UHGV virus genome: UHGV-0168042 | Length of the DNA stretch: 64,000 nucleotides | DNA from: a virus | Direction: 5' to 3' (one strand) | Shown: one piece after another, positions 4,159 through 28,114 of the stretch | How the letters are laid out: each line of letters begins with the position of its first letter | Position numbering within the stretch: position 1 is the first letter of the stretch | Made by a program: the position numbers and the translations under genes | The notes under the pieces: generated by a model | Seen by the model: the letters and a program-made list of their open reading frames with translations, nothing else | The model's database searches: none | Told to the model about the DNA's origin: nothing

Positions 4159-4403
4159 TTATTCCTCCGAAAAGCAGGTATCTGTTCATTTTCCAGAGGA
4201 TAGGGAGTGTGTGATTTGCGATGGGGATTGAATGAAGATCTTTGCCGGTCGAGAAGCGATTATTGAGGGTGATTTTTACACCTTAAGTGACGCTACTCAC
4301 ATATCCACAGAGTATTTTTATAAACCTTTTTCCATTTTTAATCCTTTTTAGATCCTTTTTAGGCGTCGCTGGAGCCAGTAGTGGCGCGGGCTGTAGAGGA
4401 GTC

Positions 4404-4522
4404 TGGTGTAAGATTTGCCCTCAATTAGATACGATCGGTGTAAGATTTGCCCTCAGAAGGTGTAAGATTTGCCCTCAAAAGGTGTAGTAATTGCCCTCAA
4501 AGTGATGTAAAAATTGCCCTCA
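4404..4522. repeat. Iteron array, 5 direct repeats of about 19 bp (ggtgtaagatttgccctca and variants) at 22-32 bp spacing
   Basis: Copies start at 4404, 4436, 4458, 4480, 4504; directly upstream of the rep gene. Confidence 0.85.
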
Positions 4523-4546
4523 CCATTTGAAGGATCACACAGGGTT

Positions 4547-5302
4547 ATGAACAGAGCGGAATTAACAGCAAAAGCCGTCAGCCTGATTGAGTCAGCGACA
4601 CCTATTAGTCGTAGTTTGGCACAAGCCAATGAGATCACGGAGGCTGCTTATCACCTGACTCGCGACCAAAAGCGACTGTTGTTTATTGTGGTGGGAAGAC
4701 TTCGCTATGCTTCTAAGGATGGCGTTCTTGGTTCAGGTGCCTGTGAGTTGACGGTCAACGAATATGCAGAGATGTATAATTTGCCCTCTGCTGAAGCCAG
4801 CAAGGATATTCGTAAGGCCATTTCAGGTCTTAGCGAGAAGAAAGTTACGATATATAACCCTGATGAATCGACCGAATCAGAAGACAGTTATGAGTCTTAT
4901 CCTTGGATGATTAAGGATGCCTATTCACCACGGCGCGGGACTTACATTATTCATCTTAATCCATATCTCATGCCGTTTTTTACTCTGCTTGATAAGAGAT
5001 TCACAAGGCTGAATTTTACCGAAGTATCTCGCCTTACAAATCCTTATTCTATGCGGCTTTATGAGTCCTTATGCCAGTACAGGAAGGATGATGGAAGCGG
5101 CTTTGCCATACTTGGCGTCGAATGGATGCGGGAGCGTTATGGGTTACCAAAAAGCTATCAGCGGTATGCCGAATTTAAGAGAAGTTTTTTAACGAAGGCT
5201 GTAGCAGAGATTGAAAAAAATACAAAAATGAAAATAGTCTTCTCAGAGGTGACGGAAGGCGGCAAAGTTACCAGGATAAAATTTACCTATCAGCAGTCTT
5301 AA
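4547..5302 (+). CDS. repA: Iteron-binding plasmid replication initiator (Rep_3/RepA-like)
   Basis: Track ORF 4514-5302 starts at TTG; first ATG at 4547 (MNRAELTAK...). Protein resembles Rep_3 initiators (central NEYAEMYNLPSAEASKDIRKAISGL, C-terminal winged-helix-like region). Flanked on both sides by iterons. Confidence 0.8.
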   Translation: MNRAELTAKAVSLIESATPISRSLAQANEITEAAYHLTRDQKRLLFIVVGRLRYASKDGVLGSGACELTVNEYAEMYNLPSAEASKDIRKAISGLSEKKVTIYNPDESTESEDSYESYPWMIKDAYSPRRGTYIIHLNPYLMPFFTLLDKRFTRLNFTEVSRLTNPYSMRLYESLCQYRKDDGSGFAILGVEWMRERYGLPKSYQRYAEFKRSFLTKAVAEIEKNTKMKIVFSEVTEGGKVTRIKFTYQQS

Positions 5303-5593
5303 GGGCAATTTTTACACCCCTCTCAAGGTGTAGAATTTGCCCTTAACGATCGGCAATTGAGGGCAATTTTTACATCTTAATTGCATGTATCTTGTTATTG
5401 GCAAGTTGTGTTTTTATATAACATATTGATATGTAAGGATTATGTAAAAATCACCCTCAACCAATATCGTGCGTATCGTGCATTCTTATTGCGCTTTTTT
5501 ATTATCATTCACTGTGTTAACTGATTGATATTATTGAAATGTGTAAAGAATGCCTTCATTACAGATGGATTAATGATGTAAAAAATGCCCTCA
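5302..5593. repeat. Second iteron cluster downstream of rep, both orientations, with AT-rich stretch (candidate origin / copy-control locus)
   Basis: Reverse copies at 5302-5318 and 5358-5376 (exact reverse complement of iteron 5), forward copies at 5327-5345, 5442-5459, 5575-5593; AT-rich tgtttttatataacatattgatatg between. Confidence 0.7.
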
Positions 5594-5683
5594 AAATTGC
5601 GCTACCTTCCCTACCCGCTATCGTTGAGGGCGTGGGTGCTGACGGGAAATGAGCAACCCTCCAGCACACATAATTAAAGCTAT

Positions 5684-6391
5684 TCAGAATTTGATCACTC
5701 CACTCACAGCCCCCTTTAACGCACTTGTAGCCATGCCAGCGGCACCGTTGACCAAAGCAGAAACACCTGAGCCTGCGGATGTGTATTTCTGGAAAGTGAT
5801 TGGGTATGACAAGAACTCTGACACCTGATCACGTGAGCGAGTGATTTCCCCAAGTTGAGTAGGAAATACGCGCATTTCTTCTTCCAGTTCTTTTCCGCCG
5901 TCCTGAGTCACCCGGTAGACACGGATTTTCATCAGATATTCAGGAGGAAGGTTTATTGTTCCATCAGGATTTGTTACACGAGAACGACGCTCTTTGAACC
6001 AGTCCATGATCTTGCCATCTTCGGTATCCCTCACGGTCATAGTGACCGGTCCGGCGCTAACATAGGTTGGCTTGCTGAATTCTACGCTGCCGATCACCTT
6101 GCTTTCTGTCTCAATGTTTCCACTGCTGTAGGTGATATCCTTCACGAACATATCGAAGCCGTTCAGGCCATCCACTTCAACGGTCCACTGCCACCCCTGG
6201 GCGTAACGGATACGCATAGCGGCAGCAACAATATTTTTCCCGTAGGCAATATCGCTACTGTAATTCCCGCTTACCCCGCCGCCTGATATGGCTTTATCAA
6301 GAATGTCGCTAATGAGGTTGCTGGTGAATGATTTCGTGTTAAATGACAATGCGGTGGTCAACGTTCTACCAACGCTGCTGAAAATACTCAC
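5684..6391 (-). CDS. Hypothetical virion protein (235 aa)
   Basis: Complete ORF, tightly packed in the minus-strand structural gene run. Confidence 0.5.
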   Translation of the reverse strand: MSIFSSVGRTLTTALSFNTKSFTSNLISDILDKAISGGGVSGNYSSDIAYGKNIVAAAMRIRYAQGWQWTVEVDGLNGFDMFVKDITYSSGNIETESKVIGSVEFSKPTYVSAGPVTMTVRDTEDGKIMDWFKERRSRVTNPDGTINLPPEYLMKIRVYRVTQDGGKELEEEMRVFPTQLGEITRSRDQVSEFLSYPITFQKYTSAGSGVSALVNGAAGMATSALKGAVSGVIKF

Positions 6392-6406
6392 TCTGCGCCT
6401 CCAGCG

Positions 6407-6958
6407 TTAAAAAATGGTAGCCCCCGGAATAATGGCCCGGTTTGAGGACATTTTTTCCTCAATCTCCTGCACGCGGGCATATAGTGTGGCTTCATCGGGC
6501 AGATCGGAGTAGTCAAATTTCCCGTCGATGGACGCTCTACGCTGCCGGGCGACATTTCTTACATTGATAAGTGCCTCCAGATATTCCTCCAACATTCCAA
6601 TGATTGCAGGAGGCACTTGCCATTCATCTAGCTCTCTGTCGCGTAGATTAACCAGATACAGCATTCGAAAAGGCCAGCGTTCTGAACCTGTTAGCTCTAA
6701 TTCAATAAATCCGGATAATTCATCCGAATAGACCAACAAGCCGTTGTTGTCAGTAACATGAACCAGAGAGAGATAATCTTCTGGCCACGGGATTGCAGTA
6801 CCACCAGCTTTTTCAAGTTTTAACGTTTTCACTACCCCTGCCCTGTCCTGATACGTGGTCAGAGCTTTGATCAGGAAGGCTTTCAGCGTTTCTTCTTCAC
6901 GCACAAGCAGTGGATTAAATCGTGCTTTAACGCTTTCTAATAATTCGGTTGGTGTCAT
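6407..6958 (-). CDS. Hypothetical virion protein (183 aa)
   Basis: Complete ORF in structural run, 16 bp from neighbour. Confidence 0.5.
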   Translation of the reverse strand: MTPTELLESVKARFNPLLVREEETLKAFLIKALTTYQDRAGVVKTLKLEKAGGTAIPWPEDYLSLVHVTDNNGLLVYSDELSGFIELELTGSERWPFRMLYLVNLRDRELDEWQVPPAIIGMLEEYLEALINVRNVARQRRASIDGKFDYSDLPDEATLYARVQEIEEKMSSNRAIIPGATIF

Positions 6959-7010
6959 CGTACCTACAACTCAAATACAAGGAATTCCCGCCACAAGGGC
7001 GGGAAAGAGA

Positions 7011-7502
7011 TCACTCTACCCAGTTGTAAACAATACGCAGGGAAGGCTTAACGACCGCTGTTACGTCTTCGGATGAGAAGTCCACGGCGTCGGAATACAC
7101 TTTGCAATGAGAATATGTGCGGATCAGACCTTTATGGTTACCGCTATTCGATTCAGCCGCCGCCTGTAAGGTAATTTCCAGATATTCTTTTCCGTATACC
7201 ATCTGTTTTACAGCGGCGAGAACTGCGCCTTCGATAGTTTCCGCGCATGTAACCTGAAATTCACCAGAGTTGCGTAATGGTCCGTGCTGGTTGAATTTCA
7301 TGCCACCAGGGGCGTAATCCTCCACATCTTCACGTGTCATTTCTGGTAACTGAGCTGTACGAACTAGTACAGACAGATGTTCGTAACCCTTAATGGTCAT
7401 CCAATATTCAGAACCAATAAGTTTTTCGCCTGCAGCCAGGTTTTTATTAAACCGGGATTTTAGAAAGGCCATATCGGCTTTTGTATTTGCAAAACCGGAC
7501 AT
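7011..7502 (-). CDS. Hypothetical virion protein (163 aa), size and position compatible with a tail tube protein
   Basis: Complete ORF; tube assignment is positional only (downstream of a 552-aa sheath-sized gene). Confidence 0.4.
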   Translation of the reverse strand: MSGFANTKADMAFLKSRFNKNLAAGEKLIGSEYWMTIKGYEHLSVLVRTAQLPEMTREDVEDYAPGGMKFNQHGPLRNSGEFQVTCAETIEGAVLAAVKQMVYGKEYLEITLQAAAESNSGNHKGLIRTYSHCKVYSDAVDFSSEDVTAVVKPSLRIVYNWVE

Positions 7503-7510
7503 AAATACTC

Positions 7511-8101
7511 CTACACAAAAACAGATGAGATATTGCTACGGTTGATCGATGTGTTACCGCTGCATTGCAGGGTTACCGTGTTATGAGTGAAATAGCCTTC
7601 CGGTGTGCGCGGGGCGTCCAGTTGGTAACTCACGCTTTTGATAACAACGTCGGTAAGGGCTATGTTCCTACCTATGTTTAACGTTACTGTCTCCGGGCGA
7701 CGACCGAATGGCGCTACATTGTTCAGTTCCGGCGATTCCATCTTCAGCAATGCTGTAATGGCTGCGTTCACTTCAAGTTGCGCGTTCGTTGTCGCCATGA
7801 AATCAATTACCAGATTAAATTCAGGCGGTTGCTGACCTTCCCAAACAAGCATTGAGTTGAAGAGGGTTTTTGTTGTTACGCCGGTTGCGGTCTGAAGCGT
7901 ATCTGCAAGAGAGCCAGCCGCAGCGCTAATACCGCCAAGCAAACCTCCTACTGACTGGTTTTCAAATGGTGATTGCCACATTGATGACAGTTCTGCGGTA
8001 GATCCTTCACCGATATAACCGACGACCATATCCTCTGAAGAGAGGATATAAACCTTCATTAACGGACTTATTCCGTCAGGCATTATCGCGCCGCAAATCA
8101 A
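7511..8101 (-). CDS. Hypothetical virion protein (196 aa)
   Basis: Complete ORF in structural run. Confidence 0.5.
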   Translation of the reverse strand: MICGAIMPDGISPLMKVYILSSEDMVVGYIGEGSTAELSSMWQSPFENQSVGGLLGGISAAAGSLADTLQTATGVTTKTLFNSMLVWEGQQPPEFNLVIDFMATTNAQLEVNAAITALLKMESPELNNVAPFGRRPETVTLNIGRNIALTDVVIKSVSYQLDAPRTPEGYFTHNTVTLQCSGNTSINRSNISSVFV

Positions 8102-8150
8102 ACGCTATTTCTCCCAGGTAGAGGCCACCTTTGCAGACGGCCTATGTCAC

Positions 8151-8891
8151 TTACAAACCGCGTTTTTTGCGAATGCGCATTGATTTTTTGCGGTTGATAT
8201 TCGCTACGGATGTATGTGCTTTGCGGCGTGCTTTTTTCAGCGCCTGTTTTTGCAATGACGTCATGCGGCGAGGACGCGGGCGTTTACGGATGATGGTAAC
8301 CTTGCCATCACGAACCACTTTTTTACGTACCGCTTCCAGCATTGCGCTATCACCACCAGCAACGGTGTAAATGGCAATAGCTGTTTCCATCATGTCGGTG
8401 TCGCTTTCGGAAAGAGCGTCATAAACACGTTCGGCAGCTGAGTCATCTTCATCGTCGATCATTTCGGTTACATCGTCCTGATCAGCGCCAAGCGCAACAG
8501 CTGCATCAGCAAGAGCTGCGAGAGCATCGTTATAAGCATCGATTTGCTCATCGGTGAAATCGGTGTCTTCATCGATATCAGCCAGGCCAGCCATAGTGAT
8601 TGCTAATGCATCAAATGAGTCAGCCTCCGGATCACCATCTTCAACCCAACCAGCAATCATGGAAGCTGCCAGGCTGCGCATATCACCTTGTGCACGGGAT
8701 TCAACCGCTTCCATCATCGCGGTTTCAATGTCGTCTTTGGGCTTTGGTTGAGTGTCCTTTCCTTTCTGTCCTGCGCTTTCCAGCATGGCGTTATCATTAT
8801 TGTCCTGAGTGGATTTATCACCGCTTTCAAAGCAGCCAGAACCGAAAATCGCACGCATAAACGGATCAGCAGTATAATTTTTCATATTCAA
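8151..8891 (-). CDS. Hypothetical protein (246 aa) with strongly acidic body and very basic C-terminal tail (RKRPRPRR...RKKRGL)
   Basis: Composition read from translation; could be scaffold-like or an internal DNA-binding protein. Confidence 0.45.
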   Translation of the reverse strand: MNMKNYTADPFMRAIFGSGCFESGDKSTQDNNDNAMLESAGQKGKDTQPKPKDDIETAMMEAVESRAQGDMRSLAASMIAGWVEDGDPEADSFDALAITMAGLADIDEDTDFTDEQIDAYNDALAALADAAVALGADQDDVTEMIDDEDDSAAERVYDALSESDTDMMETAIAIYTVAGGDSAMLEAVRKKVVRDGKVTIIRKRPRPRRMTSLQKQALKKARRKAHTSVANINRKKSMRIRKKRGL

Positions 8892-8928
8892 ACCTCTCTC
8901 CCCCGCATCATTTAGCGGGGGTTATAAA

Positions 8929-10587
8929 TCAGCGCATCAGAATTGGCTTACCGACGATTCGGCGAGCTGTACCGGTCGGACAAACAGACCAGGCCACTTC
9001 CCACAGATCGATGTCCTTTTGGACAACCTGAACAACATATGGATCTTCACCCTGGGACTTGTCACGTGGAGTAACCAGCGCACCGGCTGCAACGTAACGG
9101 TCAAGCAATTCAGTCATTGCTTTCATTAGCGCTTCTTTGGTAATGCCATCCGGTTCGTGCTTAATCGCCTGAGCTACTTCATAGAAATCTCTGGCGATGG
9201 CGTTCATCAAGGAAGACACATGCTGGAATCGCAGATAGTTGTTTTTGCTGTAAGTTGTTAAAGAGTCGTCAATGTAAACGGACCCGTCAGCAGCAACTGA
9301 AACTGGATTAATGCGCGCAAGAACGAACGCTTCACGATCAACTGCACCGATATTTGGAATTCGGGCAATGTTCTGTCGATCAATAATCGCGCGTGATATA
9401 CCTGCCGGTGCGTAATGCCAACCACCAACATCCGGTACCAGCGCCACTCCTTTTGCCTTCGCTACGAATGCGTCGCAGCTAATGCCATAGACGACATTCA
9501 TTCCAGTGAAAGTATCTCGGCAGGAGAGCGGGAAGTAGTAACGGCTTGGTTGATGTGAGCCGCCAAAACTATGGCTTTTCGCTTCTGAAATAGCGTTTTC
9601 AGGTGTCTGGTTGCCCTTCAGGTCATAGAACATGTCTACGCGAACATCTTCAGCCAGCTTTTTGATTGCGGCTAAGGCGGATGCGTCATAACAACCCAAT
9701 GACAGCAATGCGGTGTAATTAACCTCTGAAGCTTCGAGAACCTTTAATGCTTCCAGATAGTCTGCAGCGGCAATTTCGGACAGATTTCCATCAGTACCAC
9801 CTTCAAAAGCCACATCCTCAAAAATGAGTTGAGCAGCGGATGCTTCTGCATTATCTGCCAGTACGGCACCAATGCGAGTGGACTGGCTTTCAAGCAGTGT
9901 CGGAATCCATGCTGGTTGGCCCATGTCGTTGGTGCCTTCTGGATTGAAAGACACTTGGTGGCTTTCCAGCACCTCAATGGACCCATCGGTTTTTTTTTCT
10001 TTCAGCGTCAGCGTAAAGAGTTCGCTTTCTTCATCATCGCGAGTTAGTGATAACGTGCGATTTTGAGATGCATCACCATCTTTGATGAAGAATAATGCCT
10101 TCTCTCCACCTTTAATCTGGGGCGTCTCTTTGGGTGTGAAGGTCACTGATTGAGTCGTTGCAGTTGGAGCAACACCAACGCTTAATGTGTCACCTGGATT
10201 TGCTGTGGTTTCAGTAGGTTCAACGGAAAGTTCTTTGCTCGCCTTTGCCGCTTTTGCTTTGCCCACAACGGAAACAGAAATACCCGGCACCTTCATGTCT
10301 TTAGCGCAAACTCGAACGACATATCCAGAGCCGCCTTTTACTGCACGCTCCACGTGGCGATATGGTTCAAATGCCGCGCCCAGGCGAGGGTGAATCGGTG
10401 AACCTAATACGCTTTGATAAGTCGTATCGTCAACTTTCAGTACCTTACCCGGTGCGCCACGACGCGATATTACAAGCCCAGCAAAGACGGATGCGCCACC
10501 GCTGGTATTGGTGAGGGTAGCGTCAGCATTTACTGACATTACAGCAACGCCAGCTGCCTGCCCTACCGAAAAACTAATCTTATTCAT
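8929..10587 (-). CDS. Large virion protein (552 aa); candidate tail sheath or capsid protein
   Basis: Long ORF, good RBS context; assignment by size and gene order only. Confidence 0.5.
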   Translation of the reverse strand: MNKISFSVGQAAGVAVMSVNADATLTNTSGGASVFAGLVISRRGAPGKVLKVDDTTYQSVLGSPIHPRLGAAFEPYRHVERAVKGGSGYVVRVCAKDMKVPGISVSVVGKAKAAKASKELSVEPTETTANPGDTLSVGVAPTATTQSVTFTPKETPQIKGGEKALFFIKDGDASQNRTLSLTRDDEESELFTLTLKEKKTDGSIEVLESHQVSFNPEGTNDMGQPAWIPTLLESQSTRIGAVLADNAEASAAQLIFEDVAFEGGTDGNLSEIAAADYLEALKVLEASEVNYTALLSLGCYDASALAAIKKLAEDVRVDMFYDLKGNQTPENAISEAKSHSFGGSHQPSRYYFPLSCRDTFTGMNVVYGISCDAFVAKAKGVALVPDVGGWHYAPAGISRAIIDRQNIARIPNIGAVDREAFVLARINPVSVAADGSVYIDDSLTTYSKNNYLRFQHVSSLMNAIARDFYEVAQAIKHEPDGITKEALMKAMTELLDRYVAAGALVTPRDKSQGEDPYVVQVVQKDIDLWEVAWSVCPTGTARRIVGKPILMR

Positions 10588-10654
10588 GCTGGTTCTTATC
10601 CTCTAAAGCGAGAGAACGAGGCAAGGCTGCCCACGGTTAATGGGCAGCCTCTGA

Positions 10655-10933
10655 TCAGGATTCGCTTACCGTGAAGTTATCGCCTACAGTTACTTCTTTC
10701 GTAGTTGGTTCAACACTGACGGTGCTTACGCTTTTATGTGCCTCCCTAACAGTGACTGTGCACTGTGCGGTTTTATTGCCGTCATTTGTTTTGATTGTCA
10801 GCACTGCCTGCCCGGCCTTAAGAGCGGTACATGTAGTGCCATCAACCTGGACAATATCAGGGTGATCTGACTCAACAGTGAAAGATTTGTCTGTTGCGTC
10901 AGGTGGCGTGATAGTTACTTGAATGTTTGCCAT
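10655..10933 (-). CDS. Small Ig-like (Big_2-type) domain protein, candidate decoration/accessory virion protein
   Basis: 92-aa translation has the alternating beta-strand pattern of bacterial Ig-like domains (VTITPPDAT...VQVDGTT...LKAGQAVLTIKT...CTVTV). Confidence 0.5.
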   Translation of the reverse strand: MANIQVTITPPDATDKSFTVESDHPDIVQVDGTTCTALKAGQAVLTIKTNDGNKTAQCTVTVREAHKSVSTVSVEPTTKEVTVGDNFTVSES

Positions 10934-11080
10934 TTTTTTCTCCTTAACGCCCCTTAATCAGGGGCGTGTTTTTGCCTTACTTCTGCTTTGTTTTTTTCTG
11001 TGCCTTTGAAGTGTTCGCGGCGATAGTTTCACCTTCATCTACGTCAAGTGACGTTGGTGATACCGACACGTTCGCCACCA

Positions 11081-12778
11081 TCACTTTTTTTCGTTAACCT
11101 TGCCTGTCAGCATGTCGATAGCACCTTCTTTGGCACGAGTCAGACGCAGGCGGGTGAAGTAGTTTTCACCGTTGCGAGGATGTACTTCGTTGATGGCACT
11201 GCCCCAGAGAGTGGTACGGTTAACGAGAGACGGATTGGTTTCGTGAACGTAAGGGATTGCTGGGACTGCATCACCAGCAATCAGACCGGCTTTACCGATG
11301 CCTTCGCCACGCCCATAGAAGAAGATGTCATCCAGCCCGAAGTCATATCCCTGTGCCAGGAATTGCTCACAGACAGGTTGCGGCACTTCGTAAATACGAA
11401 TCGTGCCAAACAGGGTGCCGATGTACTGTACATACGGCGACTGAACGTAACCTGGTGCGATCTGGAAGTGCTGTGGAGGCAGAGAGCGCAGGAAGTTCGC
11501 GGCGTCACTACCAGCAAAGCCGCCACGAATACCCGTTGTCAGGGTACGATTTGCCATTTCTTGAGACAGAGCGTTTACTGCGTGACGCAGGAGGCCGACC
11601 CAGGACTCATAGTTTTGAGCTTCCGGCAGAGCCACATCAAATTCACGACCATAAACGGTATGGAATACCAGGGTGCGCAGACGCATGATGTCGGTTTCAT
11701 GGGAGATCCAGTTACGCATCGCGGAGAACTGAAGTGCCGCTAATTCAAGGCCGTGCTCACGGCTTAAATCGGATGCGGACATTACCGTGTGTTCGGAAGC
11801 AAGTACGTACTGGGACGGACGAACTTCGTACTTACGCATAGCCTGGTTGATCACCGGAATCAGGCTTGGATTGCGCTCGATGTTAATTTCGACCTGAACA
11901 GCAATTTCAGTACCTACTGGCGGAGCCTGGGTAAATGTAATGTCAATGACACCAGTGTCATAGGCAACTTTGGCAGTCGCTGAGAAAGTATTACCTTTGC
12001 TGTCTTTAGCATTGAAATAAAGGTTGCCATCGCCGTCGTCAACTTTGGACGGTTTGCGGTTGATCAGCAGTTTGTTATAACCAGCGCGAAGCGGGCAGGA
12101 TTGTCCCTCAAATTTTTGGATGTTGAACTGGAAGGTTTTGGTGCTGCCATCCCCTTTAGTGGAAAGGGCATACAGGCGCTTCATTTGAGAATAAACACCA
12201 GCTGACTGCATATTCAGTTCGTCACCTTGGTTGAAGGTGCCGAATTTTGTGCCTGCTACGTTGACCAGTTCATAAATATTTGACTCGTCACGATCACAAG
12301 GAACAAAAGTACAGGCATCACTGGTAGCAGCGCCCAGAGAAGCAGGCAGAATTAGAGCAGCATATTGAGCAACTTTCATTACGCCGTCAGAGCTACGCAT
12401 TGATTGCGCGACAGACTCAAACATTGCCTTACCCGTGCCTTCATGGGTATCACTGGCACATTCAGTCATCAGGCGTTCAAGAGCCATGTGTGCGTTCGCC
12501 AGGATGTCACTTGCCGGGTAATGACCATGTTGACGTTTATACTCATGCAGAGACATAGCCCACCCACCAGTGATCTGACGAGCGACCTCTGGATTTACGC
12601 CTTCAAACATAGGCACTTTCTGGATTGCTTTATCCAGGTTTTCCATCATTACTGCCTGGTCAGCAATCATGTTGCCTGCTGCATCGGTGGTCGGATCGAC
12701 GGTCATAGCCATGACGCTTGCCGCCCGATTCATAATCTCGCGCTCGCGATCACGAGCTGGCTGAATGTTTTTATTCAC
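11081..12778 (-). CDS. Large virion protein (565 aa); candidate major head or portal-class protein
   Basis: Long ORF at the head of the minus-strand structural operon; preceded by an operator-like motif region at 12877-12926. Confidence 0.5.
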   Translation of the reverse strand: MNKNIQPARDREREIMNRAASVMAMTVDPTTDAAGNMIADQAVMMENLDKAIQKVPMFEGVNPEVARQITGGWAMSLHEYKRQHGHYPASDILANAHMALERLMTECASDTHEGTGKAMFESVAQSMRSSDGVMKVAQYAALILPASLGAATSDACTFVPCDRDESNIYELVNVAGTKFGTFNQGDELNMQSAGVYSQMKRLYALSTKGDGSTKTFQFNIQKFEGQSCPLRAGYNKLLINRKPSKVDDGDGNLYFNAKDSKGNTFSATAKVAYDTGVIDITFTQAPPVGTEIAVQVEINIERNPSLIPVINQAMRKYEVRPSQYVLASEHTVMSASDLSREHGLELAALQFSAMRNWISHETDIMRLRTLVFHTVYGREFDVALPEAQNYESWVGLLRHAVNALSQEMANRTLTTGIRGGFAGSDAANFLRSLPPQHFQIAPGYVQSPYVQYIGTLFGTIRIYEVPQPVCEQFLAQGYDFGLDDIFFYGRGEGIGKAGLIAGDAVPAIPYVHETNPSLVNRTTLWGSAINEVHPRNGENYFTRLRLTRAKEGAIDMLTGKVNEKK

Positions 12779-12912
12779 GGTTAAGCCCTAAATTCGGGCG
12801 CGGCGTGAAGGTTCTTTTGACGGGCTAACAATACCTACTTTGTGATTTAGTCAATAGGTTTAGTAAAATAAAATATATTAACACGCATGTTGTTATGTGA
12901 TTTAATTTTAGT

Positions 12913-12926
12913 TTTCTAACACAAAT
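12913..12926. promoter_or_regulatory. TTTTCTAACACAAA operator-like motif, 10 bp upstream of the 12937 start
   Basis: Member of the dispersed TGTTAGAAA / TTTCTAACA family (see findings). Confidence 0.4.
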
Positions 12927-12936
12927 CATTAGAGTT

Positions 12937-13329
12937 ATGGCGTATCGAATCTTTGTTTCGTATAAAAATGGCGCTAAGAGCCACTCTCTGAACACAACAA
13001 GTCGCTTTCTTGTTGAGGCGCAGTTGGCATCAATTCTTGCCGAAAGTGAGATACTCTCGCTCGCTGAACGGATCGTTATCCAGTTTTCTGGTAGAGATAT
13101 ACTCAATGTCCCCGCTCTCACCCCGGCCTCCGAAGTTATGGAATCAATTAAATGGCCTGTATGCGGATGTCCTGCCAGGGTTGAAGAACCGGTAACTGCA
13201 ACGCTCTACATGCCGAAAGCTGTAAGAGATTGGCTTGCTATGGTTGGCAATGGGAAAGTCAGTGCTGGACTTCGCAAGTTAATTGAAATGGCAGATATTC
13301 CTGAGTTAAAAAATGCATGGCGACAATGA
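12937..13329 (+). CDS. Hypothetical protein (130 aa)
   Basis: Complete ORF with ATG start directly after the operator-like motif. Confidence 0.5.
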   Translation: MAYRIFVSYKNGAKSHSLNTTSRFLVEAQLASILAESEILSLAERIVIQFSGRDILNVPALTPASEVMESIKWPVCGCPARVEEPVTATLYMPKAVRDWLAMVGNGKVSAGLRKLIEMADIPELKNAWRQ

Positions 13330-13345
13330 GTAAACAAGGGACAAA

Positions 13346-13804
13346 ATGAGTCACGTTAACCCATCAAAAACACAATATCGCTTAATGCTGGCGATCGCGT
13401 CAGCTATACCAACCAGCCTGAATCCCCCGGCAGGCTATCCCACTGTTGTTGATGATTGTTTTCAGTATTACGGAGAAGACATCCTGAGCCAGTCAAAAGC
13501 GCTCAAGCAGTTATGTAAGGCAGGTATTCTTCACTGTATCGGAGATCCGGACGATTTTGTTGTTATGCTGGCGGATCGTGACTCTTTTCTACTGTCCTGG
13601 AAAGCTGGTGCGCGCGAAGCACGTTTGGGGAATGGTATTGGTTACATAGACTATAGCGATTGTCCGCTGGCATTTGCTGGTGGATATATGCATTGGCATG
13701 AGCGAAATAGGGGCCGTCAGCGTCAGTATCGTTTGAGTGACTTTAACGTCTGTCACGGTTTCGAAGAAGCTGACAGCCAGGACATCTGGCTTCAGGAGCC
13801 TTGA
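13346..13804 (+). CDS. Hypothetical protein (152 aa)
   Basis: Complete ORF, co-oriented and 16 bp downstream of 12937-13329. Confidence 0.5.
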   Translation: MSHVNPSKTQYRLMLAIASAIPTSLNPPAGYPTVVDDCFQYYGEDILSQSKALKQLCKAGILHCIGDPDDFVVMLADRDSFLLSWKAGAREARLGNGIGYIDYSDCPLAFAGGYMHWHERNRGRQRQYRLSDFNVCHGFEEADSQDIWLQEP

Positions 13805-14124
13805 TCCCCCTTCCCTTCCCAAATCTCCCTGTTTCTTTGGTTATTCAGTGCGTTTCGTTGGTTGCATTCGTCGATCGTGCTGAATAACTGTTCAGCGTAT
13901 GTCGGATACTTGTTTAACAGCACTGGCGTGTCTTCTGGCACTAAACAAGGGGAGTAATCAATCAGATTTGCCTGCGGCCTGCTGGTGGCTTCTACGGTAA
14001 TTTTCACTGGCACGCTGGTTGATGGCTTTTGCCCGTTCCCGCTGCATCCTGATAACGTCATCAGGCACACGCACATCGTTAATCCCAGCACGGCGTAACG
14101 CATTTTCAAGGCGAGTGATTTCAT
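13792..14124 (-). CDS. Rz1-like outer-membrane lipoprotein spanin (o-spanin), overlapping the 3' end of the i-spanin in another frame
   Basis: Lipobox LSGC after a signal peptide, Pro-rich mature part, C-terminal Cys; the 167-bp out-of-frame overlap is the classic overlapped spanin architecture. Confidence 0.5.
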   Translation of the reverse strand: MKSLALKMRYAVLGLTMCVCLMTLSGCSGNGQKPSTSVPVKITVEATSRPQANLIDYSPCLVPEDTPVLLNKYPTYAEQLFSTIDECNQRNALNNQRNREIWEGKGDQGS

Positions 14125-14431
14125 TCTGGCTTTCCTCCCGTTGTTTGATTAGGTTGGCATTCAGTTCTGCTGTTTTGCGCTGGTACTCCTTTTCCAGTGC
14201 TTTAATTCTTTCGTTTTCGGTCAGCATGGCTGAGCGAGCGTTCTCACTTAACTGTAATGCGGTAGAAAGCGTGTTGTTCGTGCTTTCCAGTTGTGATTTT
14301 GAGTCTTCAAGCGATCGGACATACCTGATGTGTTCGATAACTGCCGTCGTTGTTCGGTAAATTCCAGAAATGGCTAAAAGCGCAATTACAATCAAAATTA
14401 TCTTTTTCAAAACCATCCTCTTCAGGTTCAT
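13958..14431 (-). CDS. Rz-like inner-membrane spanin (i-spanin)
   Basis: N-terminal TM segment (KKIILIVIALLAISGIY) followed by a long periplasmic coiled coil. Confidence 0.55.
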   Translation of the reverse strand: MNLKRMVLKKIILIVIALLAISGIYRTTTAVIEHIRYVRSLEDSKSQLESTNNTLSTALQLSENARSAMLTENERIKALEKEYQRKTAELNANLIKQREESQNEITRLENALRRAGINDVRVPDDVIRMQRERAKAINQRASENYRRSHQQAAGKSD

Positions 14432-14486
14432 TTTTGGTGTTAAACATGTGCCAATTCACATCCTTTTGTGTTCCTAAGTGGTGTTG

Positions 14487-15290
14487 CTATGGTTCCTTTT
14501 TGGTGTCCTTTTGGAGCGCATCGATAACGCCTTGTGGCATGATTAAACTGATTGCCGGACTCATTACTGCATCATCCAGTAGAGAACTAGTTAACGTGAT
14601 GGCGACAGCGTTCTCTAAACCTTTGGTTGCCTGAGTGGTTGACGTTTTAATGCGACCTGTAAGGGCTACGACACTCTCACTTGCTGAGTTAATTTCGGAG
14701 AGTAAAACTTCGGCGGCTGTCACTGCTTCCCGTAAAGCATCAATTTCATCCTGAGTAATGACTGGAGCCTGAGCGCCCCCAGCACCACCCTGTCCACCAT
14801 TGCTATTACCACCAGCGCTTCCAGCAGCTTCTATTTTTGCGTTAATGGCGTTCATGGCGGTTTTCAGAGCATCAAGTTTTAGCGCCGTCAATGCGTCCGT
14901 TAGAGATTGCGGAATGGAAACATTCCCCATTCCCTCAACAAGGGCGAAAGCAGGTATGGGGGTCAGCTCGTTACCTTTTGCGTAGCATTCCCAGCCAATC
15001 TTCATCTGTAACAGCTCTGATGGCTTGGTGTATGGGGAAAGAGAATCAGCCAGTAATGAAGACGCTTTGCTGGCCTCATTGAGCTGTTCAGAAAAGCCAA
15101 GCAATTGAGTAGTCCAGGCCGAAACAGAATCAGGATAGGTTTTATCGGCGAGAACTATTCCCTGTATGGCGCTGGCGAGTGATGAGGCTTTTACAGACGC
15201 TGCCCGGCTTATGGTTATAGATTCTGGTGTAGAGATACCGGCATCTGACAGAATTTTGAAGGCTTTAACTTCACCTATTGAATCAAGCAT
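14487..15290 (-). CDS. Hypothetical baseplate-associated protein (about 267 aa from internal ATG at 15290)
   Basis: Track ORF 14487-15389; start refined to MLDSIGEV..., where TAATG overlaps the stop of the upstream PAAR gene; Gly/Ala/Ser-rich central region. Confidence 0.45.
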   Translation of the reverse strand: MLDSIGEVKAFKILSDAGISTPESITISRAASVKASSLASAIQGIVLADKTYPDSVSAWTTQLLGFSEQLNEASKASSLLADSLSPYTKPSELLQMKIGWECYAKGNELTPIPAFALVEGMGNVSIPQSLTDALTALKLDALKTAMNAINAKIEAAGSAGGNSNGGQGGAGGAQAPVITQDEIDALREAVTAAEVLLSEINSASESVVALTGRIKTSTTQATKGLENAVAITLTSSLLDDAVMSPAISLIMPQGVIDALQKDTKKEP

Positions 15291-15574
15291 TATGCAACCT
15301 GAAAAATATCCTCGCCGTTGGCGATAACAGAACCACAAGAAAGCGGATCGCCTACACAGACAACTCCCTTTCCACCTATCGAAAACCATACTCGCGTCGA
15401 TACAGCTGCCCCTGGATGTGCACTGTTACCGTCAGTGTGACTGGGAAACATGGCACCATCTACAACAATTGGCTTACCGTTAACGGTGAACCAGGGAACA
15501 GTTTCAGCTACCAGTCGCGGCGGAAATCCTCCGTGACCAGAACAAAGGGTGTCGCTGGTGGCTATTGCGCTCAT
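15290..15574 (-). CDS. PAAR-like spike-tip protein
   Basis: 94 aa with Cys/His-rich PAAR-type motifs (LCSGHGG, SHTDGNSAHPGAAV, CVGDPLSCGSV). Confidence 0.55.
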   Translation of the reverse strand: MSAIATSDTLCSGHGGFPPRLVAETVPWFTVNGKPIVVDGAMFPSHTDGNSAHPGAAVSTRVWFSIGGKGVVCVGDPLSCGSVIANGEDIFQVA

Positions 15575-15639
15575 TCTTCACCTCCGGGTTATCCTCCTAT
15601 TGTCATCACTTTGTTATTTCATCATTCAAACTGAGAGTT

Positions 15640-15815
15640 AAATTTCGGAATATTTCTGTATTCTCACTTCATTCTCAAATAAATCTCACTGTCAGACCAT
15701 AATTCATTGGGTGATTAAGATATTCTCAAAATGAACTCAATAATCACTCTTTTTTTATCTCTTTTGGTGTGGATTTTTGGGTGCTTCTCTTTTAAAATTG
15801 CATTTTGATTCTCAA
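15640..15815. repeat. Short direct repeats (ATTCTCA-type, 4-7 copies) upstream of parM; candidate parC-like centromere/operator
   Basis: tattctcacttc, cattctcaaat, atattctcaaaat, gattctcaaatg within 170 bp. Confidence 0.3.
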
Positions 15816-15841
15816 ATGTGTCTCAGAAGTGGAGCAAGAAG

Positions 15842-16798
15842 ATGCGCATTTTTATCGATGATGGTTCAACCAATATCAAAATGCTGTGGGAGCACGACGG
15901 GGAAACTCGCACTCACATCAGCCCTAACAGCTTTAAGCGCGGATGGTCAGCAACATTTGGTGCGGGCAAGCCGTTTAACTATGTCATTGACGACGAAAAG
16001 TATTCGTATGATTTGATCTCGCCAGATGTTCTGCCGACGAATAACGTGGAATGGCAATACAGCCCGCTTAACGTCCTGGCTGTTCACCATGCCCTGCTGA
16101 CAAGTGGCATTGAGCCGCAGGAAGTAGAAATTGTGGTCACGCTGCCTCTGGCGGAGTTTTACGACGACGACGCGCAATACAATCTCGATAACATCGAGCG
16201 CAAGAAAGCCAGTCTTATGCGCCCCGTCACGCTGAATAAAGGCAATGTGTTCACGATTAAGAAAGTTACGGTACGACCGGAGTCTATTCCGGCAGGAATT
16301 GGCCTGTGCGACAATCTGAACCCTGCCCATTCTGTTCTTATCGTCGATTTGGGTGGAACTACCCTTGATGTTTCAATGGTCGCCGGGCAAATGACGGCAG
16401 TTTCCCGTGTTTTTGGCGATTCGAATCTTGGTGTATCACTGGTCACCAGGGAAGTAAGGCAAGCACTTGCAAGGGCCAATACCGAAACGTCAAATTACAA
16501 TGTCGATCAGCTCATTATTAACCGCCACGATGAAGATTATCTGAACGACAATATCAATGACCCATCAGCGATTGGTGATGTGAAAAAGGCCATTGCCGCA
16601 AGCATTGACCGTCTGCGTACCCGCGTTCTTGATGTGATTGGCGACTTTAAAGGATATACGCATGTCATGGTGATCGGTGGTGGCGCACCGCTGGTGGCAG
16701 ATGCAATTCGCGAGCAAGTTAATATTCGTGATGACCGTTTCTTCGTGGCGGATGACCCGCAACTTGCTCTTGTTCATGGCCTGAAAGCAATCGGTTAA
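15842..16798 (+). CDS. parM: ParM/StbA actin-like partition ATPase (type II partition)
   Basis: MRIFIDDGSTNIKMLW... N-terminus and overall similarity to R1 ParM (family-level recall); track ORF begins at GTG 15818, ATG with GGAG RBS at 15842. Confidence 0.85.
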   Translation: MRIFIDDGSTNIKMLWEHDGETRTHISPNSFKRGWSATFGAGKPFNYVIDDEKYSYDLISPDVLPTNNVEWQYSPLNVLAVHHALLTSGIEPQEVEIVVTLPLAEFYDDDAQYNLDNIERKKASLMRPVTLNKGNVFTIKKVTVRPESIPAGIGLCDNLNPAHSVLIVDLGGTTLDVSMVAGQMTAVSRVFGDSNLGVSLVTREVRQALARANTETSNYNVDQLIINRHDEDYLNDNINDPSAIGDVKKAIAASIDRLRTRVLDVIGDFKGYTHVMVIGGGAPLVADAIREQVNIRDDRFFVADDPQLALVHGLKAIG

Positions 16799-16805
16799 CG
16801 AGGTA

Positions 16806-17150
16806 ATGTCCATGTCTCAGGAACGTAAGAAAGTGATGATTTATCTTCGCCCAGAGGCTTATGCCAATGAAAAGGCGGCGAGCGAGAAGATAAAAAAACA
16901 TAGCGATATGGCAAGAACCGCATTGTTGGCAGGGCTTGCGCTGGGAGAAGTCGATAGCAGGCTTCCAGGATTACTGGCTTCCCTGCTGACCGAAGATAAT
17001 AATCCGGAGCTGATCCGAAAAATGCTGGCATCCTTCCTGGAACTACCAGCTGCGGTTGAGGAGCGCCCTGCCTCCATTGAGCCAGTGAAGGAGCAAGTTG
17101 TTGCCAAAAGCGCGTCGGCGCGCAATCTGGCTGACTCTCTACCTGATTGA
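16806..17150 (+). CDS. parR: ParR/StbB-like partition adaptor
   Basis: Small protein directly downstream of parM with RHH-like N-terminus and ALLAGLALGE motif. Confidence 0.6.
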   Translation: MSMSQERKKVMIYLRPEAYANEKAASEKIKKHSDMARTALLAGLALGEVDSRLPGLLASLLTEDNNPELIRKMLASFLELPAAVEERPASIEPVKEQVVAKSASARNLADSLPD

Positions 17151-17168
17151 CAGAAGATGTGCTGGTTT

Positions 17169-17194
17169 AAGGCTGCAAATTGCAGCCTTTTTTA
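17169..17194 (+). terminator. Rho-independent terminator after parR
   Basis: aaggctgcaaattgcagcctt hairpin followed by a T run. Confidence 0.6.
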
Positions 17195-17437
17195 TGCCTT
17201 AATGGTGCCTAATTGGTGTTAATCTGGCACCGGTTAGGTGCTGTTATGGTGCAGTTTTGTATCTGGTTCCAATTTAGGGCTGATTTCGTGTTAAACAGGA
17301 TGCAACAGAGGGCAAATTTAGAATGATTAGTGTTATACTTTTGCAAAGCATAATGACTCCACTATAGAGCCAAAACCGCATCAATAAGACTTCTGTTTGG
17401 AGCCAGTTTGATACCAAAATAACACCGAGGAACGGAT

Positions 17438-18079
17438 ATGATTATATTGGTAGTCAGCCAAAAAGGTGGCTGTGGAAAATCAACCACAAGCGTAAACATC
17501 TGTGCGGAGCTTGCCCGCGCAAATAAGGATGTAGTGTTACTAGATGCAGACAAGCAAGGAACAGCTGCCCGCTGGGCAGCTGACCGTAACACGGCAGAGG
17601 TTTCTCCTGTAATTCATTGTGTCCAGAAGTTTGGTAATATTCGAGAAACACTTCTCGATCTGGATAAGCGTTATGAATTTGTAGTTGTTGATACAGCCGG
17701 GCGCGATAGCAAAGAGATGCGTACAGGCATAACCGCTGCAGATATTGTGTTGGTCCCATTCAGACCATCTCAACCAGATTTAGACACGCTGGCACACTTT
17801 GTTGAAGTGTTTGAAGAGGCTTTGGACCTGATGCCTAATCCTAGCATTAAGGCGTTCGCAGTCTTAACAATGGCCCCATCCAATCCGGTTGTGAATGAAA
17901 CCAATGAGGCCAAAGAGTACCTGGCTGAATATCCGCAACTGAAGTTGCTGAAAACCATCATTCGTGATCGTAAGGTTTACCGCGATTGCATGGCTGAAGG
18001 GAAGGGCGTTGTTGAGATGGACAACGGGAAAGCTAAAGGTGAAATCCAGATGTTGGTTAAGGAGTTATTAAGTGATTAA
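17438..18079 (+). CDS. Small ParA/ParF-family partition ATPase (type Ib)
   Basis: Deviant Walker A KGGCGKST, Walker B-like VVVDTAG; 213 aa lacking the N-terminal HTH of large ParA proteins. Confidence 0.8.
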   Translation: MIILVVSQKGGCGKSTTSVNICAELARANKDVVLLDADKQGTAARWAADRNTAEVSPVIHCVQKFGNIRETLLDLDKRYEFVVVDTAGRDSKEMRTGITAADIVLVPFRPSQPDLDTLAHFVEVFEEALDLMPNPSIKAFAVLTMAPSNPVVNETNEAKEYLAEYPQLKLLKTIIRDRKVYRDCMAEGKGVVEMDNGKAKGEIQMLVKELLSD

Positions 18080-18359
18080 ACCTCGTAAATCGGTAAAAGC
18101 CCCCGAAGTAAAAGACCCCGATCTTGAACGCCGAATTGAGGATTTTGCAAGTAAGGCTGATTTGGTGCCGGGTGAGCAACCAGAAGACAACAAAGTGCTC
18201 GATAAGGACGCCCCACGTGATTTTAAATCTATTCGTGTTGGTTTCAATGAATACGAGTACCAGGTACTTGATGCGTTAAGTAAAAAGCATAATCGCAGCA
18301 AATTGAATATGATCCGCCATGCTATCCTCATGTTAGCGGAGTCTGAGGAAGCAAAATAA
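18072..18359 (+). CDS. ParG-like small partition/DNA-binding partner
   Basis: 95-aa basic protein overlapping the ParA stop; RHH-like C-terminus (KLNMIRHAILMLAE); GGTGCA-containing inverted repeats flank the pair (17211-17250, 18406-18436). Confidence 0.5.
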   Translation: MIKPRKSVKAPEVKDPDLERRIEDFASKADLVPGEQPEDNKVLDKDAPRDFKSIRVGFNEYEYQVLDALSKKHNRSKLNMIRHAILMLAESEEAK

Positions 18360-18627
18360 AGTCTTTCAGGGTGGTTTTAGAACTTAAAAAATCTTGAACC
18401 AAAGATGCACCAATACACCACTAATTTGGTGCACCTTTACATCCTTTTTGGTCCCAATTGTGTACCATTTGTCATTAATTTACTTATGCGCAAAAGTGGG
18501 CTTCATGAAAAAGCTCATTATTGAAATAACGATAGAAAGCAATTTCTAATCAACTAGTGGTTGTCAGCCTATTCGGCTTATAAGATCATACGCTGTTATA
18601 CGTTTTTTACGCTTTGAGGAATCCACA

Positions 18628-20289
18628 ATGAGTGAGGCAGAAGCCCGCCCGACTAACTTTATTCGTCAGATCATCGATGAAGATCTGGCCAGTGGTAAGC
18701 ACACCACAGTACACACCCGTTTCCCGCCGGAGCCGAATGGCTATCTGCATATTGGTCATGCGAAATCTATCTGCCTGAACTTCGGGATCGCCCAGGACTA
18801 TAAAGGCCAGTGCAACCTGCGTTTCGACGACACTAACCCGGTAAAAGAAGATATCGAGTACGTCGAGTCGATTAAAAACGACGTTGAATGGTTAGGTTTT
18901 CACTGGTCTGGTAACGTCCGTTACTCCTCCGATTATTTTGATCAGCTCCACGCCTATGCTGTTGAACTGATCAACAAAGGCCTGGCGTATGTTGACGAAC
19001 TGACGCCGGAACAGATCCGCGAATACCGCGGCACCCTGACGCAGCCGGGTAAAAACAGCCCGTACCGCGATCGCAGCGTTGAAGAGAACCTGGCGCTGTT
19101 CGAAAAAATGCGTGCCGGTGGTTTTGAAGAAGGTAAAGCCTGCCTGCGTGCGAAAATCGACATGGCGTCGCCGTTTATCGTGATGCGCGATCCGGTGCTG
19201 TACCGCATTAAGTTTGCTGAACACCACCAGACTGGCAACAAGTGGTGCATCTACCCGATGTACGACTTCACCCACTGCATCAGCGATGCGCTGGAAGGTA
19301 TTACGCACTCTCTGTGTACGCTTGAGTTCCAGGACAACCGTCGCCTGTACGACTGGGTGCTGGACAACATCACCATTCCTGTTCACCCGCGCCAGTACGA
19401 ATTCTCGCGCCTGAATCTGGAATACACTGTGATGTCCAAGCGTAAGCTGAACCTGCTGGTGACCGACAAGCACGTTGAAGGCTGGGATGACCCGCGTATG
19501 CCGACCATTTCCGGTCTGCGTCGTCGTGGTTACACTGCGGCTTCTATTCGTGAGTTCTGCAAACGCATCGGCGTGACCAAGCAGGACAACACCATTGAAA
19601 TGGCGTCGCTGGAATCCTGCATCCGTGAAGATCTCAACGAAAACGCCCCGCGCGCAATGGCGGTTATCGATCCGGTGAAACTGGTCATCGAAAACTATCA
19701 GGGCGAAGGCGAAATGGTCACCATGCCGAACCATCCAAACAAACCGGAAATGGGTAGCCGTCAGGTGCCGTTTAGCGGTGAGATTTGGATCGACCGCGCC
19801 GATTTCCGAGAAGAAGCTAACAAGCAGTACAAACGTCTGGTGCTGGGTAAAGAAGTGCGTCTGCGTAATGCTTACGTCATTAAGGCTGAACGCGTGGAGA
19901 AAGATGCCGAAGGTAATATCACCACCATCTTCTGTACTTATGACGCCGACACCTTAAGCAAAGATCCGGCAGATGGTCGTAAAGTGAAAGGCGTTATTCA
20001 CTGGGTGAGCGCGGCACATGCGCTGCCGGTTGAAATCCGCCTGTACGATCGTCTGTTCAACGTGCCGAACCCAGGTGCTGCGGATGATTTCCTGTCGGTG
20101 ATTAACCCGGAATCGCTGGTGATCAAACAAGGCTTTGCTGAACCGTCGCTGAAAGAAGCGGTAGCGGGTAAAGCATTCCAGTTTGAGCGTGAAGGTTATT
20201 TCTGCCTCGACAGCCGCCATTCTACGGCGGAAAAACCGGTATTTAACCGCACCGTTGGACTGCGTGATACCTGGGCGAAGTTAGGTTAA
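18628..20289 (+). CDS. glnS: Glutaminyl-tRNA synthetase (class I, HIGH/KMSK)
   Basis: 553-aa translation matches E. coli GlnRS along its length from recall ([24 protein letters not shown]..., HIGH at [17 protein letters not shown] motif); only the last residues appear to differ. Confidence 0.95.
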
Positions 20290-20314
20290 TAGGTATTTCG
20301 CCACATGAAAAAGT

Positions 20315-28054: not shown

Positions 28055-28114
28055 GTTTGGCAGTCTGGAGGGCCGATTTTACATAAAATCAAGGTTTAAA
28101 TATTTGGTGATTAT

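Follow-up and report, generated by a model that had tools for sequence, protein, structure and literature searches.

An iteron replicon and two predicted partition loci interleaved with virion genes in a D6-like phage-plasmid

The 64,000-nucleotide stretch of the virus genome UHGV-0168042 that is analysed here (the window) belongs to a D6-like (P1g2), P1-related temperate phage, which persists in the form of a circular plasmid with a size of about 90 kb. The interval examined, positions 4404-18440 of the window (window coordinates being the locus coordinates minus 597), carries three plasmid-maintenance modules that are interleaved with virion genes: a Rep_3 initiator gene with its iterons, a type II partition locus (ParM/ParR) and a type Ib partition locus (a small ParA and its partner, orf61). 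This is considered to be the best explanation of the interval as a whole, with a probability of about 0.88. The identity of the element, the domain content of its proteins, the repeat arrays and their enrichment, the conservation, the purifying selection and the exclusively plasmid location are established in this work, and all the mechanistic steps described for the three modules are taken over by homology.

The interval is covered over 100% of its length by Escherichia phage D6 (MF356679 / NC_050154) at 98.3% identity, and more than 100 circular, non-mobilizable plasmids from E. coli, Salmonella and Shigella, with sizes of 88-95 kb, match it at 98-99%. When considering the whole window, it is colinear with D6 from about 41.6 kb to the end of the D6 record and then on to about 9.8 kb, therefore crossing the coordinate origin of D6, as is expected of a permuted circular element. 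The par region occurs in 101 of 5426 complete E. coli genomes, in one copy each, and is located on a plasmid in all 101 cases and on the chromosome in none; this type of phage-plasmid is thus widespread, being present in about 2% of the complete E. coli genomes.

The gene order, as given in the D6 records, starts with sit and pmgB (minus strand) and orf42, which encodes Rep (plus strand). Then follow tub, pmgC, bplB, pmgG, 21, 22 (sheath), orf49, orf50 and 23 (capsid) on the minus strand, orf52-53 (plus), orf54-55 (minus), and upfB and upfC (minus). The genes of StbA/ParM, StbB/ParR, the small ParA, orf61 and glutaminyl-tRNA synthetase (GlnRS) are on the plus strand, and dmt and hrdC are on the minus strand. 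The window has the same gene order, with few indels and with a fused methyltransferase of 764 amino acids (aa) downstream in place of D6 orf63/64. The rep gene lies on the opposite strand between pmgB and tub, in agreement with a first-pass annotation of this DNA, which had placed it in opposite orientation inside the virion gene run, and the par loci follow upfC, such that the modules are split over the pmgB-tub and upfC-dmt junctions. The region between them, 5684-15574, consists mostly of ordinary virion genes that are outside the plasmid modules.

The three modules are already annotated features of a known phage-plasmid and they are of well-known types; they belong to the standard D6 architecture and are not specific for this window. 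In the D6 GenBank record (2018), orf42 is labelled as a pfam01051 replication initiator, orf58/59 as StbA/StbB and orf60, with a question mark, as a possible ParA, and in the RefSeq copy the labels are replication initiation protein, partition proteins and ParA-like partition protein. In the D6 records, orf61 is hypothetical, and the iterons and the centromere repeats are unmarked. The primary paper on phage D6 is reportedly that of Gilcrease and Casjens from 2018. The plasmid pYU39_89 is a D6-like plasmid prophage (PMC6799933), and a 2019 paper likewise lists these maintenance genes. The D6 genes have been annotated before, double par loci of such composition are common, and the present analysis opens no new question. 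Its additions are that the iterons are homologous to the F iterons, that orf61 is ribbon-helix-helix (RHH)-like, that phased GGTRY arrays flank parA and that a cassette has been replaced within sharp boundaries. The annotation can be used in typing replicons, in anticipating incompatibility with IncFIA and pB171-type plasmids and in constructing D6-based vectors.

The Rep protein matches the Pfam families Rep3_N (E 3e-29, 102.5 bits) and Rep3_C (E 1e-15, 58.2 bits), both above the cutoff, and its nearest solved structures are those of RepE (PDB entries 1rep and 2z9o, E 1e-73). It is 50% identical, across 228 aa, to RepE of IncFIA (F), which is likewise 251 aa long. The comparison with the NCBIfam RepE equivalog model (NF010305) gives 280.6 bits, which is below the cutoff of 342, and Rep is therefore a relative of RepE and not its equivalog. 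The protein is 100% identical to Rep of the plaque-forming phage D6. The iteron pattern RRTGTARNAWTTGCCCTCA, when allowing up to three mismatches, has 13 matches in the 64 kb, with 0.7 expected, and none of 100 shuffled sequences reached 13. Twelve of these 13 matches, which are 19-bp units, cluster within 4264-5593, both upstream and downstream of the gene (Table 1), and the iteron-flanked Rep_3 initiator of the first-pass annotation is thereby confirmed.

The last direct iteron ends 25 nt before the ATG of rep, and further upstream are the GC-rich spacer, an AT-rich stretch with short repeats, a DnaA-box-like site and an iteron in inverted orientation. The origin had been taken to begin at 4400. 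It probably starts near 4260, where the AT-rich repeats, the DnaA-box-like site and the inverted iteron are located; the elements that had been proposed are otherwise at or near their coordinates, with the reservation made above that most of the intervening DNA holds virion genes. The standard iteron mechanism, with binding of monomers, opening of the origin, autoregulation and handcuffing, is established for F, P1 and related replicons. By analogy, Rep monomers would bind the five direct iterons, and Rep together with host DnaA would open the adjacent AT-rich stretch. The direct iterons reach the start of rep, and through them rep is probably autoregulated. The downstream iterons are a candidate copy-control (handcuffing) locus, comparable with incC of F and incA of P1, which would titrate Rep and handcuff Rep-bound origins, resulting in a low copy number.

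Judged from protein similarity and repeat sequence, Rep and its iterons are homologous to the RepE/ori2 system of F. The F iteron TGTGACAAATTGCCCTCA, taken from an IncFIA plasmid, and the D6-type iteron GGTGTAAGATTTGCCCTCA have the common core TGT.A.A..TTGCCCTCA. The length of the initiator is also the same as in mini-F, and the iterons occur both upstream and downstream of the gene in the two replicons. Unlike in mini-F, the copies downstream of rep in the window point in mixed directions. The iterons of the two replicons are dissimilar at about 4 of 18 positions, and the replicon of the window is located within a phage tail-gene operon, with no linkage to sopABC. F has four upstream iterons, compared with five in the window. 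In the oriR-repA-incA region of P1 the elements follow one another in the same order, with a DnaA box at the place of the DnaA-box-like site, then the AT-rich and GC-rich parts, five iterons, rep and the control iterons. A relocated P1 repA was considered as the origin of rep and was rejected, as P1 RepA and Rep have no significant pairwise similarity (E 0.057); P1 RepA itself is a weak match of Rep3_N.

It is also observed that, at 4158-6391, the oppositely oriented replicon interrupts a late operon that is single in P1 (LPsit driving pmgC-tub-pmgB-sit). A P1-type Lpa late-promoter consensus, built from LPs, LPsit and LP23, was used for finding a promoter in the window from which the transcription of the tail genes could resume past rep. 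It has no matches in the window with up to one mismatch, and with three mismatches its matches are at chance level.

The type II locus comprises parM, parR and an upstream repeat region. ParM matches the Pfam family StbA_N (E 2e-69) and the ParM C-terminal domain (E 4e-55), it aligns over its full length with the structure of R1 ParM (1mwk, E 7e-111), and it is 42% identical to the pB171-type ParM. ParR matches Pfam Plasmid_stab_B (E 4e-11) and the structure of pB171 ParR (2jd3, E 1e-6), and is 32% identical to the pB171-type ParR. All four of the plus-strand ATTCTCA heptamers of the 64-kb window are within 15660-15808, with a spacing of 11 bp inside the clusters. In L010, a diverged D6-like relative, the cores of the parC-like repeats are kept, whereas the spacers vary. 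From its repeats, the region 15660-15829 has the anatomy of a parC site, and the locus has the gene content and the upstream repeats of a ParMRC system, as the first-pass annotation had proposed. ParR would coat the 11-bp TCTCA repeats and cap the actin-like filaments of ParM-ATP, which would push the sister plasmids apart, and ParR would also repress the parM/parR operon. The arrangement is like that of R1 parMRC when considering the full-length ParM homologue followed by a small ParR, and the 11-bp repeats that are located upstream around the promoter. It differs from R1 in that the TCTCA core and the 3+4+2 layout are specific for this element, and in that the pB171 ParR/StbB family is the only one to which a relationship of ParR can be detected.

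A terminator-like hairpin, which is invariant in three diverged relatives, separates parR from the type Ib locus, and the two par loci are therefore separate operons in tandem. The small ParA has a deviant Walker A motif, KGGCGKST, starting at residue 9. Its Pfam matches are AAA_31, CbiA, MipZ and others, its nearest solved relative is ParF of TP228 (4dzz, E 1e-18, full length), and it matches the NCBIfam model ParA_partition end to end with 162.6 bits. It is 43-45% identical to the ParA proteins of IncFIB(pB171-type), IncI/K and other plasmids (43% for the pB171 type), and its homologues with 43-67% identity adjoin small RHH genes on plasmids, including the par2 locus of the pB171 type.

The parA-orf61 pair is flanked by arrays of short repeats. 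The five units of the upstream array are in exact 11-bp phasing (17204-17248), and the extended -10 element of the predicted promoter lies between this array and another, weaker group of units within the leader. When the density of GGTGC is calculated in 80-bp windows across the 64 kb, the window at 17201 ranks first and the one at 18387 is joint second. The degenerate motif GGTRY occurs seven times upstream (1.8 expected) and five times downstream (0.9 expected). The corresponding numbers are 12 against 2.0 and 7 against 1.0 in the diverged D6-like element L007, and 16 against 2.1 (P 1e-9) and 9 against 1.35 in L010, where an unmistakable array of 11-bp GGTACCGAATT units is found at the downstream position. 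GGTRY arrays are visible at the same locus in a further relative, L016, such that arrays flank the operon in four genomes in all, and the upstream arrays of L007, L010 and L016 are stronger than that of the window. The flanking repeats had been described as inverted repeats containing GGTGCA; GGTGC/GCACC units do flank the gene pair, but they are better described as degenerate GGTRY arrays with units in both orientations, the upstream one being phased at 11 bp.

The 14-mer AATGATTNGTGTTA occurs exactly twice in the 64 kb. One copy is at 12917-12930 (minus strand), upstream of the major capsid gene and in the same orientation, and the other is at 17322-17335 (plus strand), just upstream of the -10 element of parA and overlapping with it. 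This motif, which was spotted post hoc, could be the site of a shared regulator or a chance repeat.

The partner of ParA, orf61, starts with a basic N-terminus (MIKPRK), which is followed by a disordered linker and, at about residues 52-93 in the C-terminal part, by a predicted beta-alpha-alpha segment. An exhaustive profile search finds that its family consists of 123 representative clusters of small proteins. Among 76 aligned relatives, 23 match NikA-like, 17 RHH_1, 12 DUF6290, 6 RHH_7 and 5 TraY, which are all RHH families. On the basis of these relatives, orf61 is placed in an unnamed RHH-like family. In the model calculated with AlphaFold2 (AF2) for the monomer, from a shallow alignment, the disordered linker is followed by helices at residues 60-73 and 76-94, with a predicted local distance difference test score (pLDDT) of about 71-75 for the helix-helix part. 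The N-terminal M-x-K-x-R is kept in the consensus of the family; it is at this place that ParG-type proteins carry their ATPase-stimulating residue. A phmmer search of orf61 against the PDB gives no match, and no sequence link with the pB171-type ParB is detected, neither by BLASTP (E 0.14) nor by hhalign of the family profile against the single ParB (probability 0.6%). The protein falls outside the Pfam ParG family, and ParG is not among the families that are matched by its 76 aligned relatives. The first-pass annotation had called the locus small-ParA/ParG-like, which holds for the architecture and the probable fold of orf61 but not for its family membership. In the proposed mechanism, orf61 would bind the GGTRY arrays that flank the operon and would stimulate the ParF-like ATPase by means of its basic N-terminal tail. 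The ATPase would position the plasmids over the nucleoid, and orf61 would also repress the parA promoter.

The interval has, in agreement with the first-pass annotation, two unrelated segregation systems side by side, of type II and type Ib, in tandem and with the terminator hairpin between them. The prototype of such an arrangement is the double par locus of pB171 (par1 with ParMR and par2 with ParA and an RHH-type ParB), reportedly described by Ebersbach and Gerdes in 2001. The similarity with pB171 includes the type II locus beside a type Ib locus, the identities of ParM, ParR and ParA to the pB171-type locus given above, and the candidate arrays on both sides of parA, which recall parC1 and parC2. 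The operons of the window are in tandem and separated by a terminator, whereas those of the pB171 type are divergent, with one control region in common. This was seen directly in an IncFIB plasmid, in which parR and parM diverge from parA, and parA is followed by the gene of a 91-aa RHH_1 protein. Two further differences are that the host element here is a phage and that orf61 has no detectable similarity to ParB. Plasmid constructs of parC1/parC2 of pB171 par2 have been described (PMC4270457). In a 2026 survey, 971 PLSDB accessions combine a type I RHH-ParB system with a type II system, and this combination had been reported previously (PMC13245405). With the ParF-ParG-parH system of TP228, the locus shares the ParF-like ATPase, ParF being the nearest solved structure to ParA, and a small partner protein, whose N-terminal tail is flexible and basic and whose C-terminal segment is RHH-like; it differs in that orf61 is not a Pfam ParG protein and in its repeat motif.

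The phage backbone and the order of the virion genes are as in P1. In P1, however, parS-parB-parA-incA-repA-oriR is located between gene 23 and upfA, pmgB abuts tub, and the partition system is of type Ia, a type with a large ParA that has an N-terminal regulatory domain, a helix-turn-helix ParB and a parS with an IHF site, whereas ParA of the window is just 213 aa long. Pfam searches of the open reading frames (ORFs) of the interval find no ParB/Spo0J-type gene, so the interval lacks the features of a type Ia system. The P1-like backbone is therefore, as had been stated in the first-pass annotation, without the ParA/ParB module of P1, the position of which holds orf52-55. These are four ORFs (12937-14431) without a Pfam match, and they fill the slot between the capsid gene and upfB; the equivalent slot in P1 has upfA, mlp and ppfA in addition to the rep/par module.

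The genes most closely related to those of the modules are plasmid genes (F RepE, R1 ParM, pB171 ParR, TP228 ParF and the pB171-type ParA), and a plasmid origin of the three modules is a reasonable reading of these similarities, in line with the module exchange with plasmids that had been suggested at first. The identities to the plasmid homologues are at most 51%, and the exchange with plasmids would therefore be ancient. It is documented that plasmids and phage-plasmids swap genes for replication and partition (PMC10879196).

Both par loci are present in every D6-like relative examined, and in the diverged elements L007, L010/L011 and L016, the order upfC, parM, parR, parA, orf61 is kept in all. 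The ratio of nonsynonymous to synonymous substitution rates (dN/dS) is 0.03-0.08 for all four par genes, showing strong purifying selection, which argues that both systems are maintained by selection. The divergence is nevertheless uneven. The window and L007 are 99-100% identical over 13000-17100 and 18500-20300, but only 40-80% identical over about 17150-18300 (5080-6290 in L007), with sharp boundaries, and the conserved terminator hairpin 17169-17195 is at the left junction of the replaced cassette. In L016, the synonymous divergence (dS) is 0.07-0.15 for parM/parR, compared with about 1.2 for parA. This pattern indicates that the type Ib cassette and its upstream array have been replaced as a unit between near-identical genomes, and this parA-orf61 replacement among D6-like genomes is the only recent exchange that is visible. 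The type Ib cassette behaves as a discrete allele that can be exchanged within the D6-like population. A tentative proposal, considered to be rather unlikely, is that this cassette determines compatibility and is exchanged rapidly, and that orf61 defines a new family of RHH centromere-binding proteins (the 123 clusters). If partition incompatibility, or competition between co-resident phage-plasmids, is what drives the turnover, then related phage-plasmids could coexist, or displace each other, by way of the second par locus. Among the alleles, the beta strand with which orf61 is predicted to contact DNA (KSIRVxF) hardly varies, and a change of centromere specificity is therefore not evident.

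The same replacement bears on the possibility, considered to be unlikely, that one par locus alone works in partition and that the other is redundant or dominated, or is kept for regulation, for extension of the host range or for exclusion of competitors via incompatibility. In other dual-par plasmids (SCP1, R27 and pINV), one system is often dominant or condition-dependent (PMC13245405), and the swap of parA-orf61 as a unit between genomes that are otherwise 99-100% identical is as would be given by a diversifying incompatibility pressure. However, both loci are complete, each with an NTPase (nucleoside triphosphatase), an adaptor and repeat arrays, they occur together in all the relatives inspected and are under equally strong purifying selection, and the near-invariant strand of orf61 points away from a changed centromere specificity. 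The presence of two maintained partition systems is preferred; both may contribute to stability, or one may dominate.

Several points weigh against the three-module interpretation. The DnaA-box-like site is not statistically distinctive, as near-consensus sites have a background of 0.72 per kb, and the clusters of parC repeats are out of phase with one another. The GGTRY motif was picked post hoc, and its enrichment in the window is at P ~0.002-0.003 for each site, which is modest. For orf61 itself there is no Pfam match (E <=0.01) and no NCBIfam match, and the profile of its family aligns weakly (E 0.1-0.2) with CopG and HP0222 over the predicted beta-alpha-alpha segment. The AF2 model of orf61 has an overall pLDDT of 60, which is of low confidence, and the Foldseek comparison of this model with the PDB gives meaningless hits alone (E >7); this route, via the monomer model and Foldseek, cannot decide the fold, because the strand of an RHH protein forms in the dimer only. 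Finally, the literature searched, which does not include the 2018 D6 paper, gave no experimental work on the replicon of D6 or on its par loci.

It is very unlikely that ParA and orf61 have no function in partition, and are instead a ParA-like ATPase and a small regulator with another positioning or regulatory role for the phage. Such a role would agree with the missing direct family assignment of orf61, with the caution of the D6 annotators, who added a question mark to ParA and left orf61 as hypothetical, and with the existence of non-partition roles among the ParA/MinD-type ATPases, but it does not account for the full-length matches of ParA with ParF and with ParA_partition, for the small RHH genes beside its plasmid homologues or for the phased arrays that flank the operon in four genomes. 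A reading of the modules as the decaying remains of a prophage that is integrated or defective, for which no supporting point was found, is practically excluded, as is the scenario of integrated chromosomal DNA with degenerate relics, by the 101 plasmid and zero chromosomal locations, the circular 88-95 kb records, the intact ORFs, the purifying selection and the identity of Rep with that of a plaque-forming phage.

Table 1. Features of the replicon and of the two par loci (window coordinates)
Feature	Position	Strand	Description
Distal inverted iteron	4264-4282	-	2 mismatches; beyond the AT-rich region; inverted-repeat pairs
DnaA-box-like site ATATCCACA	4301-4309	+	1 mismatch to TTATNCACA; at the position expected from P1 oriR and F ori2
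AT-rich stretch, candidate DNA-unwinding element	4310-4363		3-4 repeats ending CCTTTTT; 70% A+T over 4283-4363
GC-rich spacer	4364-4403		Between the AT-rich stretch and the direct iterons
Five direct 19-bp iterons (GGTGTAAGATTTGCCCTCA type)	4405-4522	+	0 mismatches each; spacing 32, 22, 22 and 23 bp
rep	4547-5302 (ORF from 4514)	+	251-aa Rep_3 initiator (WH1+WH2); start as annotated in D6
Iteron-like copy inside rep	4771-4789	+	2 mismatches
Downstream iteron cluster, five copies	5300-5593	mixed	Pattern matches at 5300 (-), 5327 (+), 5358 (-), 5441 (+) and 5575 (+)
parC-like centromere/operator	15660-15829	+	About nine 11-bp units with TCTCA core; clusters 15660-15692, 15722-15761 and 15808-15829 (3+4+2)
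TAAAAT, -10-like hexamer	15793-15798	+	Between repeat clusters; conserved in L010
parM (stbA, D6 orf58)	15842-16798	+	318-aa actin-like segregation ATPase
parR (stbB, D6 orf59)	16806-17150	+	114-aa centromere-binding adaptor; 7-nt gap to parM
Intrinsic-terminator-like hairpin and T run	17169-17195	+	9 bp, 5 GC; between the two par operons
Upstream GGTGY/GCACC array, candidate centromere/operator site 1	17200-17255		Five units, at 17204, 17215, 17226, 17237 and 17248
Extended -10 element TGnTATACT, predicted promoter of the parA operon	17331-17339	+	TATACT invariant; TGn kept in the window, L007 and L010
parA (D6 orf60)	17438-18079	+	213-aa small type Ib Walker-type ATPase, without N-terminal DNA-binding domain
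orf61	18072-18359	+	95 aa; overlaps parA by 8 nt; probable RHH centromere-binding protein
Downstream array of GCACC/GGTGC/GTACC units, candidate centromere site 2	18404-18470		Four to five units at 18407-18467; includes GATGCACCAA...TTGGTGCACC

Directly after the type Ib locus, at 18628-20289 (plus strand), is a full-length GlnRS gene, with matches to Pfam tRNA-synt_1c and to both anticodon-binding domains. This gene is present in D6 and L007 and absent from L010, L011 and L016, in which dmt directly follows orf61; it is therefore variable cargo of these elements. The position of the D6 methyltransferase genes orf63 and orf64 is occupied by the single 764-aa ORF (20338-22632, minus strand), of which the part 21168-22610 is not matched by D6 in megablast. 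A fused protein is also present in L007, where it has 762 aa and combines the DNA_methylase and MethyltransfD12 families.

Three other segments, 28329-28871, 41952-47894 and 60080-61570, are also without a megablast match to D6 and are mosaic replacements relative to D6. The first of these is within the kilobase with the lowest GC content of the window (0.345 at 28001-29000), and the second one holds about seven plus-strand ORFs. ARAGORN predicts three tRNA genes on the minus strand, Met(CAT) at 59999-60074, Thr(TGT) at 61912-61987 and Arg(TCT) at 61990-62066. At the homologous place, the D6 record lists tRNA-Thr and tRNA-Asn on the plus strand, which disagrees with the ARAGORN calls in both strand and identity.

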